From an uncultured Clostridium sp. (GTDB lineage Bacteria > Bacillota > Clostridia > TANB77 > CAG-508), in assembly GCA_946495655.1 (NCBI GenBank), contig CAMMDS010000001.1, forward strand, positions 69,324 through 133,323: a stretch of 64,000 bases of DNA. The letters run 5' to 3'. Positions 29,330 through 30,846 of the stretch are shown here, piece after piece (the first letter of the stretch is position 1; the number at the start of each line of letters is the position of its first letter). Below the pieces are notes generated by a model. That model ran no database searches and was not told where the DNA came from. It saw nothing but the letters and a program-made list of their open reading frames with translations. The translations under genes were made by a program, and so were the position numbers.

Positions 29330-29993
29330 TATTTTTTTGATCCTTTCCTTTTGACATTTTTTTATTAAATAAATTTATAATATGTTCTACTGTTTCTTCT
29401 GTAACTTCTTTTTCTGACAAATTACCATTAACTCTAACAATTGGATATTTTTCTTGTGTTAAATTTCTTAAATATTTTTCCCTTATTCTCTTTAATTTTT
29501 CTGCAGTTTCATATGGTGCTATCTCTTTTCCTCTATTTTTTATTCTTTTAACAGCTTCATCTACGCTTACATCTAAATATATCCCTAAGTCTGGTTTTGG
29601 CAAAATATCTAAAAGCTTGTCCATATGTTCAAGTCCTTGTTCTTCTAGACTTGAATATATTTTATTACACAAACAATATCTATCTAATATTACAACATTT
29701 CCTTTTTCTAATTCTGGAACTACTCGCGTTAAAGTATTATTAATCAAATCATTTCTCCATACAATGCTTCTTAATCTAGATGAATATACCTCTCTTCTTG
29801 TTTTATGTTGCATCTCTGCTGTTTCTTCTAATTCTTTTGTAAAAATAGAATTATCAAATATGCTCATAGTCTTTAACCTAGATATATTTTTTCCGTATCT
29901 TTTTATATTGTTAATTAAAGTTGTTTTACCTGCTCCATCAATTCCCATTACAACAATTAGAATTCCATTCGTATTATCTTTTATATTATGCAT
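29313..29993 (-). CDS. Thymidylate-kinase-family dNMP kinase
   Basis: GIDGAGKTT P-loop, LDRY (DRY/F motif) and a LID-like RIKNRGKE. It overlaps both neighbours. Confidence 0.75.
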   Translation of the reverse strand: MHNIKDNTNGILIVVMGIDGAGKTTLINNIKRYGKNISRLKTMSIFDNSIFTKELEETAEMQHKTRREVYSSRLRSIVWRNDLINNTLTRVVPELEKGNVVILDRYCLCNKIYSSLEEQGLEHMDKLLDILPKPDLGIYLDVSVDEAVKRIKNRGKEIAPYETAEKLKRIREKYLRNLTQEKYPIVRVNGNLSEKEVTEETVEHIINLFNKKMSKGKDQKNSAREI

Positions 29994-30846
29994 ATTTTTT
30001 CCTATTGTATTTAATTAATTCATTTATTAGGAATTGAAAGTAATCATCTTGATTTTCATCATAAATTTCAAGATTCTTTCTCAACTTTTCTTCCATTTTA
30101 ATAAGTCTATTTATTTGATATTCTATATTTTCTTTTGGCATTTCTGCCATTATATTTTCCTCAGGATTTTCTACTTCAGATGCTTTCACTATTTTCTGTC
30201 TATCCTTCTCATAAAAATGCATACTATTTACATGATGTGTATATGTTCCTATATTAATATTCAACAAACTAACAATATATTCCTGCCACATCGTAAAATT
30301 AAATACATCATATGGTAACCCTAGATATAAATCATTAGATCTCATGTTAGTAAACATATCTAATTTATTATCCCTTATCATGAATTGTAATTCTAGTGTA
30401 CATGGTATATCATTACTATCTAAGCCTACATCTTTTTTATCATAAATTGGAATTACTGCTCTACGTGTATTTTTGTCTTCTTCTAGTAAATTTATTATTT
30501 TTTTAATATTACTTTTTATTCTTGGTCCATATGCTCCATTTAATTTAGCACCATCATCTGAGTATTTGTTATAACTTGGTGCATAATATTGTATTACATT
30601 TAAGTCATTGCTTCCAGACATACACCATAGCCATTCTCCAATTGCAAAGGATAAAGAAACGTTTCTAACATTTTTATTAAGAATCCTAGTTCTTGGATTC
30701 AATATCTTTAATGTTACTCCTCTTATTTCAGTCGTTGGCATGTGCCTTGGTGATACTAGTTCCCCATTTTCCAACAAATATTTGCATAGTTTTATGTATA
30801 TACTACTAAATCCTTCTTCTTCAATATACATTTTACTATCTCTCAC
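29986..30846 (-). CDS. Thymidylate-synthase-superfamily enzyme of the deoxycytidylate hydroxymethylase/methylase type
   Basis: The catalytic Cys is in IPCTLELQFMIRD. NMRSNDLYLGLPYD carries Asp where ThyA has the dUMP-specifying Asn. GEWLW is also present. Confidence 0.7.
   Translation of the reverse strand: MRDSKMYIEEEGFSSIYIKLCKYLLENGELVSPRHMPTTEIRGVTLKILNPRTRILNKNVRNVSLSFAIGEWLWCMSGSNDLNVIQYYAPSYNKYSDDGAKLNGAYGPRIKSNIKKIINLLEEDKNTRRAVIPIYDKKDVGLDSNDIPCTLELQFMIRDNKLDMFTNMRSNDLYLGLPYDVFNFTMWQEYIVSLLNINIGTYTHHVNSMHFYEKDRQKIVKASEVENPEENIMAEMPKENIEYQINRLIKMEEKLRKNLEIYDENQDDYFQFLINELIKYNRKKYA

Follow-up and report, generated by a model that had tools for sequence, protein, structure and literature searches.

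A predicted dCMP 5-hydroxymethylase and its partner genes as cargo of a non-viral mobile cassette in an uncultured Clostridium

What would a bacterium do with a second gene of the thymidylate synthase (ThyA) superfamily, one whose active site has Asp where thymidylate synthase has its substrate-reading Asn? The question is raised by a stretch of 64,000 nucleotides from an uncultured Clostridium sp. (contig CAMMDS010000001.1, positions 69,324 to 133,323 of the forward strand), which we call the window throughout its full length. The gene occupies third place in a run of five co-oriented genes, which encode, in this order, a MazG-like pyrophosphohydrolase, an APH/choline-kinase-like kinase, the ThyA-like enzyme, a Tmk-like kinase and a protein with the fold of uracil-DNA glycosylases (UDG). 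We favour, with moderate confidence, the view that these genes form a T4-like pathway to 5-hydroxymethyl-deoxycytidine monophosphate (5-hydroxymethyl-dCMP) that travels as cargo of a non-viral mobile cassette.

The open reading frame (ORF) of the ThyA-like gene translates, as listed, into 286 aa and starts with a GTG overlapping the preceding gene. The true start is likely the ATG at 30831 (Met6), which would give a protein of 281 aa, since a Shine-Dalgarno-like stretch (GAGAGA) is found 7 nt upstream of it and a 99%-identical database protein also has 281 aa. The protein matches PF00303 with an E value of 5.5e-23 (81.9 bits, cut-off 24.3) along model positions 2-221 of 266 and keeps the complete set of residues conserved in the ThyA family (Cys149, Glu71, Tyr106, Arg128/129, Arg169, Asp172, His210 and Tyr212). 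Against the NCBIfam equivalog models for thymidylate synthase it reaches 50-72 bits, for cut-offs of 108-427 bits (the best scores are 71.8 bits with a cut-off of 174.55 and 70.1 with a cut-off of 327). The genome encodes a canonical ThyA (251 bits) on a different contig, and no ThyX was found in it. Taken together, the low equivalog scores, the canonical ThyA elsewhere and the absence of ThyX indicate that the gene is a divergent superfamily member that comes in addition to the canonical one. Its identification as the housekeeping ThyA was dismissed on the scores and on the presence of the canonical gene. The active site also departs from that of a canonical thymidylate synthase, with Asp180 at the position of Asn177 and Asp146 at that of Leu143 in the Escherichia coli (Ec) enzyme.

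The residue at the Asn177 position has been located in two MAFFT alignments, one of 10 sequences and another of 118 database homologs together with references. The references included E. coli ThyA, T4 gp42 and MilA (its sequence taken from the HMMER alignment to PDB 5b6d). In both of them Asp180 falls in the column of Asn177 of E. coli, Asp179 of T4 and Asp186 of MilA, flanked by the invariant Arg166, Asp169 and Gly173 upstream and by His207 and Tyr209 downstream (Ec numbering), and this column holds Asp in 116 of the 118 homologs. The register of the alignment is sound, since the residue numbers published for the T4 enzyme come out correctly (Glu60, Tyr96, Arg123/124, Asp145, Cys148, Ser169, Asp171, Asp179, His216 and Tyr218; PMC6400193).

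Much of this had been anticipated by an initial annotation made from the letters of the window. The two blocks that it quoted, DIPCTLELQFMIRDNK and NMRSNDLYLGLPYDVF, are present exactly in the translation, its placement of Asp at the Asn177 equivalent is borne out, and the alignment reproduces the correspondence that it drew with Cys148 and Asp179 of T4. The role that it gave to this position as determinant of specificity agrees with the literature, in which the position is named as such for ThyA, the T4 dCMP hydroxymethylase and MilA (PMC13326640, PMC5175136, PMC6400193) and the N177D replacement goes with a preference for dCMP in the ThyA superfamily (PMC13326640). Its prediction of dCMP rather than dUMP as the probable substrate is supported by Asp180, by the equivalog scores below cut-off and by the separate canonical ThyA. 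A gp42-like spacing (IRD.K...NMRSND) was also claimed and does not hold, as the distance from the Cys block to the RS.D block does not differ between ThyA, gp42 and our query; the likeness to gp42 lies in the residues instead.

This resemblance extends to the whole active site. We have tabulated 16 positions (58, 94, 126, 127, 143, 146, 147, 165-169, 173, 177, 207 and 209, Ec numbering), at which the query reads E Y R R D C T M R S N D G D H Y, the same as T4 gp42 at all 16. MilA departs from this signature at just two positions, with Lys126 and Ala167, and E. coli ThyA at five (143, 147, 165, 168 and 177). Several of these positions have published meanings. Leu143 correlates with methyl products and Asp or Glu143 with hydroxymethyl products, and D169N marks the flavin-dependent 5-hydroxy-dCMP synthases (PMC13326640). 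In the T4 enzyme the substrate water is activated by Asp145, which lies three residues ahead of the Cys, and the D145N mutant is inactive (PMC6400193). The query has Asp146 at the Leu143 position (Asp146-Ile-Pro-Cys149), also three residues before the catalytic Cys, and Asp is found there in 116 of the 118 homologs; Asp172, the equivalent of Asp169, is kept in the query and likewise in 116 of them. A 5-hydroxy-dCMP synthase of the RB69 gp48 type was dismissed, given that Asp172 is retained and not replaced by Asn. Regarding the sugar, the preference of MilA for CMP is due to Ala176 and Lys133, where the deoxynucleotide enzymes carry Ser and Arg, and the A176S/K133R replacement abolishes the use of CMP (PMC5175136). 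The query has Ser170 and Arg128 at these places, and for the Arg and Ser positions the deoxy-type residue appears in 115 and 114 of the 118 homologs, respectively.

Asp180, Asp146, Asp172, Ser170 and Arg128, read with these published rules, lead us to predict that the base handled by the enzyme is, with little doubt, cytosine, that the sugar is probably deoxyribose and that the product is likely, if a little less firmly so, hydroxymethylated. For the assignment as a whole, a predicted dCMP 5-hydroxymethylase, our confidence is again moderate. The initial annotation had offered 5-hydroxymethyl- or 5-methyl-dCMP as the product and considered that the sequence could not tell which of them; the cytosine part of this statement stands, and the second part seems too cautious given Asp146, the published mark of hydroxymethylases.

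The choice between methyl and hydroxymethyl depends on the published Leu143 rule, so that the methyl alternative deserves to be weighed here. The enzyme would then be a dCMP methyltransferase producing 5-methyl-dCMP, as in the Xanthomonas phage Xp12, with methylene-tetrahydrofolate (CH2-THF) as donor of both carbon and hydride. An Asp at the Asn177 position would be equally required, and the dihydrofolate formed would have to be recycled anyway because the genome has a canonical ThyA. Another point in its favour concerns a second water that in T4 is held by Ser94 and Tyr96 (S94A retains about 25% of the activity; PMC6400193), as the query lacks this Ser and has Gly104 in its place, two residues before the catalytic-base Tyr (Gly104-Ala105-Tyr106). 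The same GA-Y arrangement appears in 108 of the 118 homologs and in gp319 of Bacillus phage G. However, the acidic residue at the Leu143 position correlates with hydroxymethylation (PMC13326640, PMC6400193), the equivalent of the Trp83 gate is Tyr, and the nearest phage homologs adjoin genes for DNA glucosyltransferases, which need a hydroxymethyl acceptor. We regard a methylase as highly improbable.

These nearest phage homologs, 38-40% identical to the query, belong to Enterococcus phage VPE25, Lactobacillus phage ATCCB and Bacillus phage G (gp319), and all three adjoin beta- or alpha-glucosyltransferase genes, for which reason a hydroxymethyl product fits well in this branch. In phage G, the product of gene gp315 (L011, 1468-2463), annotated as a thymidylate kinase, fuses a P-loop dNMP kinase in residues 4-153 with a UDG domain (PF03167) in residues 189-318. 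It is located four genes from gp319 and has as neighbours an alpha-glucosyltransferase and a dCMP-deaminase-like gene. The fusion joins the two functions that are translationally coupled in the operon of the window.

The five genes of this operon are all intact, and their stops and starts overlap or abut (coordinates in Table 1). The ATG of the Tmk-like gene (29993), for example, overlaps the TAA of the ThyA-like gene (29986-29988), and the UDG-fold gene overlaps the stop of the Tmk-like gene. The best solved relatives of the MazG-like protein are 2q73/2q5z (E 4e-17), which we take to be the integron iMazG with its preference for dCTP and dATP, followed by dCTP pyrophosphatase 1 (E 6e-5). What PMC3856429 confirms is that iMazG is a dNTP pyrophosphohydrolase. 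This first protein is 71-78% identical across all copies of the cassette. For the second, the family profile retrieves the choline kinase 4r77 of Streptococcus pneumoniae (E 1.6e-10) and then YtaA and methylthioribose kinase, with His189, Asp191, Asn196 and Asp208 invariant in the family. The Tmk-like kinase matches solved Tmk structures (E 1e-11), and two further Tmk-family genes are found elsewhere in the genome. In PADLOC it matches the candidate model PDC-M51B only, and the ThyA-like, MazG-like and UDG-like proteins match none of its models.

Table 1. Positions in the window of the ThyA-like gene, its key codons, its operon partners and the surrounding element
Feature	Position	Strand	Basis
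ThyA-superfamily enzyme, predicted dCMP 5-hydroxymethylase	29986..30846	-	PF00303, active-site signature
Codons of Cys149; Asp146; Asp180 (GAT)	30400-30402; 30409-30411; 30307-30309	-	alignment
Codons of Ser170; Arg128; Asp172	30337-30339; 30463-30465; 30331-30333	-	alignment
MazG-like all-alpha NTP pyrophosphohydrolase, first operon gene	31762..32121	-	PF03819 E 5e-11
APH/choline-kinase-fold small-molecule kinase	30836..31753	-	PF01636 E 2e-11; HGDxxxSN and DFD core intact
Thymidylate-kinase-family P-loop dNMP kinase	29313..29993	-	PF02223 E 1.6e-22; TIGR00041 89 bits
UDG-superfamily fold protein, 229 aa, last operon gene	28640..29329	-	AlphaFold2 and Foldseek
Large serine recombinase, downstream end of element	26830..28527	-	Resolvase, Recombinase and Zn_ribbon_recom domains
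DUF6870 ORF, 53 aa, upstream end of element	32180..32341	-	PF21757 E 3.7e-7
5' part of interrupted penicillin-binding-protein gene	32511..34451	-	PBP_dimer and Transpeptidase domains; neighbours mraZ, rsmH, ftsL
3' part of interrupted penicillin-binding-protein gene	26497..26781	-	PASTA domain; then murE, mraY, ftsW, murG

The last protein of the operon is a sequence orphan. It has no match in Pfam or NCBIfam (E 0.01), PHROG or PADLOC, it does not fall within PF03167, and its family profile retrieves only noise from the PDB sequences and no solved UDG. Its structure was predicted with AlphaFold2 from a 32-sequence alignment (pLDDT 89, pTM 0.88; the single-sequence model, with pLDDT 35, was unusable), and Foldseek matched the model to the family-4 UDG 4zby (E 7e-8), UdgX and TDG with a probability of 1.00 and TM scores of 0.5-0.6. 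The predicted model thus confirms a UDG alpha/beta fold. Two elements are invariant in the family, a Gly35-x-Asn37-Pro38 loop after strand 1 and a loop with His198 after the last strand, their positions being read from the predicted secondary structure rather than from a residue-level superposition. Within the family, the largest branch (proteins of 227 aa, about 49% identical to that of the window) is a stand-alone gene, seen in three metagenome contigs of the European Nucleotide Archive, ENA (L178-L180, 9001-9684). It may represent an unrecognised UDG family of ordinary repair. Its slot between ybeY-dgkA and era is presumably the one taken by cdd in Bacillus subtilis.

Put together, these activities would form a short route. 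The MazG-like enzyme would probably convert dCTP into dCMP, as the counterpart of T4 gp56. In the ThyA-like enzyme, Cys149 would attack C6 of dCMP, Asp180 would read and protonate the cytosine ring, the methylene of CH2-THF would be added at C5, and a water positioned by Asp146 would hydrate the exocyclic methylene, releasing 5-hydroxymethyl-dCMP and tetrahydrofolate. The Tmk-like kinase, as the counterpart of T4 gp1, would probably convert this product into 5-hydroxymethyl-dCDP. A candidate target for the APH-fold kinase is the new primary alcohol of the 5-hydroxymethyl group, as with the unrelated 5-hydroxymethyl-deoxyuridine (5-hmdU) DNA kinases, and it might alternatively be a nucleoside kinase. 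Base excision or quality control is the probable role of the UDG-fold protein, which could remove uracil, 5-hydroxymethyluracil or another base from DNA, and it may well be a general repair enzyme that was recruited by the cassette.

A number of observations weigh against the dCMP hydroxymethylase pathway. The equivalences between residues of the ThyA-like enzyme derive from sequence alignments. With Gly104 where T4 has Ser94, one feature of the T4-type enzyme is lost even if Asp180, Asp146 and the Ser170-Arg128 pair are all present, and the call on the product falls short of certainty for this reason. In the maximum-likelihood tree the query groups with other Clostridia (100/98) and then with homologs from Bacillus and Brevibacillus (98/96), within a hydroxymethylase-like clade set apart from ThyA with a support of 100/99. 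With its long branches and an open polytomy, the tree nevertheless does not separate a position of the clade closer to T4 gp42 from one closer to MilA. The stand-alone UDG-like branch sits in a housekeeping operon (ybeY-dgkA-[UDG-like]-DUF3048-era-recO) with neither a ThyA-like nor a Tmk-like neighbour, so that a link between the UDG-like family and modified cytosine is not obligatory. Two more points, the closeness to MilA and the gene clusters of Bacilli, belong to an alternative of their own.

According to this alternative, the enzyme is a CMP hydroxymethylase like MilA or BcmA, and the operon makes a free or phosphorylated small molecule derived from 5-hydroxymethylcytosine, of the nucleoside antibiotic or thiamin-antimetabolite type. 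Cleavage of the N-glycosidic bond would then fall to the UDG-fold protein, and phosphorylation of the product to the two kinases. MilA, a CMP enzyme, is by far the best match among solved structures (E 1.4e-39, compared with 1e-12 for true ThyA), and the query has a MilA-like C-terminal helical extension in which the invariant Glu252 and Arg256 align with MilA. The nearest relatives of the APH-fold kinase phosphorylate small alcohols (choline, methylthioribose). Moreover, homologs 46-51% identical to the query are found in Bacilli (L004, L006, L021-L024 and L033, from Bacillus cereus, Brevibacillus panacihumi, Streptococcus mitis and Oceanobacillus), where TS-Tmk-UDG-like or APH-TS-Tmk sets (TS being the ThyA-like gene) are part of larger clusters with a second, different ThyA homolog. 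These clusters include QueA-like, PqqD, NUDIX/CYTH, ornithine/diaminopimelate decarboxylase, acyl-CoA dehydrogenase, carrier-protein (PP-binding) and ATP-grasp genes, with an ABC-2 exporter in S. mitis. They have the appearance of small-molecule biosynthesis rather than of DNA precursor synthesis, and suggest a natural-product or hypermodification pathway that starts from nucleotides and is so far undescribed. The exporters of the Bacillus-type clusters are in keeping with small-molecule biosynthesis. On the other hand, the residues behind the CMP preference are of the deoxy type in the query and in nearly all of its homologs, as described above, the Tmk-like partner is a member of the dTMP kinase family, and the MazG partner is closest to dNTP/dCTP pyrophosphatases. 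The cassette also lacks the PF05014 N-glycosidase, the methyltransferase and ThiD, and in Clostridia it has no exporter. A CMP enzyme therefore strikes us as unlikely, and we retain dCMP as the predicted substrate.

In the chromosome, the operon, together with a DUF6870 ORF of 53 aa and a large serine recombinase, makes up an element of about 5.8 kb, devoid of phage structural genes, that splits a penicillin-binding-protein (PBP) gene of the dcw cluster between its transpeptidase and PASTA parts; the homology of the 5' part ends after ...GGHQGG. An intact second PBP paralog (767 aa) is encoded 7 kb from the interrupted gene (window 41064-43367, reverse strand). With this paralog in place, the loss of function of the split gene may be tolerated. 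In an uncultured Clostridia metagenome-assembled genome (MAG) (L020, 1-11013), the five-gene cassette lies by a serine-recombinase fragment, with murE-mraY again only a few kb away. This lineage may thus have seen more than one insertion in or close to the dcw cluster. A second large-serine-recombinase element was seen in an ENA metagenome contig (L181, 5147-12256), splitting a polysaccharide deacetylase gene into two pieces (PF01522; 5147-5620 and 11873-12256). Its cargo consists of a sigma-70-like gene of 607 aa, a 44-aa Tmk remnant, a UDG-like gene and the recombinase. The UDG-like and recombinase end is the same as that of the window, and the nucleotide cargo is decayed.

The ThyA-like family is rare and sporadic. 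Within a collection of 185,579 species genomes we found 263 candidate stretches, in Bacillota, Pseudomonadota, Bacteroidota, Acidobacteriota, Chloroflexota and others, and only one of the 24 species of the same genus has the gene. The genome under study is small, with 1.55 Mb in 51 contigs (93% complete, about 28% G+C), and all 24 species of the genus likewise have small genomes of 1.0-1.8 Mb. The full set of MazG, APH, TS, Tmk and UDG-like genes appears in the same order at five loci from MAGs or metagenome contigs of uncultured Clostridia (L001, L017-L020), and two short contigs (L015, L016) carry part of it. The settings differ, with a tyrosine integrase and a Gabija-like pair beside the cassette in L001, smpB in L019 and a serine recombinase and murE-mraY in L020. 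A search of plasmids gave one partial match only, to the ThyA-like gene of a Geobacillus plasmid. In most other phyla the cassette is a different one, shared by about 60 loci (L025-L094), with an Asp177-type ThyA homolog of about 330 aa, an unknown 266-aa protein that has no family, an aGPT-Pplase3/ADDT protein (PF18746/PF18724), a divergent helix-turn-helix (HTH)-IrrE/ImmA protein that matches the PD-Lambda-2_B and CapP models, and an ORF of about 110 aa; a DUF4031 protein is added upstream in 13 of them. The profile of the 266-aa family retrieved only noise from the PDB sequences, and homology of this protein to the UDG-like family is not claimed (hhalign probability 9%).

Given the phage-like logic of the pathway and the phage-type large serine recombinase, the cassette might also be seen as a decayed prophage remnant, left by a virus that formerly had hydroxymethylcytosine DNA and now without function for cell or element. 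The Tmk fragment beside the UDG-like gene in L181 illustrates such decay. Yet the five ORFs in the window are intact and translationally coupled, and the same five genes recur in the same order, with 44-78% protein identity, in different genomic settings of several Clostridia. Furthermore, tblastn with the APH-like and UDG-like proteins matched nothing in 50,697 phage records, the UDG-like family did not appear in a pattern-seeded scan of IMG/VR, and the best viral relatives of the ThyA-like protein are at most 43% identical, compared with 60-84% for those in bacterial MAGs and metagenome assemblies. A remnant is, in our opinion, quite improbable.

As to the benefit of carrying 5-hydroxymethyl-dCMP synthesis on such an element, a role in anti-phage defence is plausible and fits the distribution of the cassette, because this is accessory, mobile and island-associated. 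More specifically, and only as a tentative proposal, the cassette could make 5-hydroxymethyl-dCTP, or a derivative phosphorylated by the APH-fold kinase, as a weapon or as a mark. Used as a weapon, the pathway would be inducible, turning dCTP into a modified nucleotide for incorporation into phage DNA during replication, and the UDG-fold enzyme would then attack this DNA. Used as a mark, part of the cytosine of the host or of the element would be replaced before replication, with the glycosylase as discriminating or proof-reading partner. To our knowledge, pre-replicative replacement of cytosine has until now been regarded as a feature of phages. Were either version true, it would be a new bacterial use of the phage hydroxymethylcytosine pathway, and if 5-hydroxymethyl-deoxycytidine nucleotides are made in the cell, the cassette would provide a small and testable system for the way in which bacteria handle modified deoxynucleotides. 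There is also a consequence for annotation, namely that hundreds of bacterial genes labelled 'thymidylate synthase' are not thymidylate synthases. In the literature searched we found neither an APH-fold kinase nor a sequence-orphan UDG-fold protein paired with a ThyA homolog.

Among the systems already known, DS-4 of E. coli is a recent validation of a thymidylate synthase homolog inside a bacterial anti-phage system, in this case of the uracil type (PMC13092281). It was validated in the DefensePredictor study and consists of a thymidylate synthase homolog, a dNMP kinase, a 5-hmdU DNA kinase, a TIR protein and a hypothetical protein. Its protection of E. coli from phages was demonstrated by experiment, which shows that operons of this kind can act against phages, whereas for MazG, aGPT-Pplase and UDG systems that study gave predictions of a defensive role without validation (PMC13092281). 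DS-4 shares with our cassette the organisation as a bacterial, non-phage operon and the combination of a ThyA-family enzyme of the hydroxymethylase type (Asp at 143) with a dNMP kinase. However, DS-4A has Asn at position 177 and belongs to a different branch of the tree, the P-loop 5-hmdU DNA kinase and the TIR effector have no domain counterpart in the window cassette, and the listed components of DS-4 include no MazG, APH-fold kinase or UDG-fold protein. Our cassette would offer a compact and conserved cytosine-type version in gut-type Clostridia. The aGPT-Pplase3/ADDT cassette of other phyla is likewise sporadic and has a ThyA homolog of the same subfamily (33-44% identity) with the same signature, but it combines it with a protein of the amino-acid:DNA-transferase family and a PD-Lambda-2_B/CapP-like regulator and has no MazG, APH or Tmk.

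The similarity to MilA (PDB 5b6d, 5jnh), a CMP 5-hydroxymethylase that belongs with BcmA to mildiomycin and bacimethrin biosynthesis, amounts to 37% identity along some 236 residues, the C-terminal extension among them, with Asp at both the 177 and 143 positions. The two differ in the change of Lys133/Ala176 to Arg128/Ser170 and in the deoxynucleotide-type partners of the cassette, none of whose genes matches PF05014 or PF15891, the equivalents of MilB/BcmB being absent along with the methyltransferase and ThiD. MilB and BcmB are hmCMP N-glycosidases with the nucleoside 2-deoxyribosyltransferase fold, and the single glycosidase-like partner in the cassette has the UDG fold instead. The ThyA homologs of VPE25, ATCCB and phage G have the same residue signature as the query, and in phage G a kinase of the Tmk type is joined to a UDG domain. 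The phage genes, unlike ours, are found in replication modules by glucosyltransferases and in phages that have no APH-fold kinase, and in those of VPE25 and ATCCB the position two before the catalytic Tyr is still Ser.

The same three-step logic is found in the gp56/gp42/gp1 set of T4, with an NTP pyrophosphatase, an Asp177/Asp143-type C5 transferase that coincides with the query in every one of the tabulated active-site positions, and a P-loop dNMP kinase. The overall identity to gp42 is only 23%, and gp42 has Ser94 instead of Gly and lacks the MilA-like C-terminal extension. The pyrophosphatase of the window is MazG-type rather than dUTPase-type and its kinase is Tmk-type rather than gp1-type. 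The window cassette has no glucosyltransferase and adds an APH-fold kinase and a UDG-fold protein, all within a small non-viral element of a bacterial chromosome.

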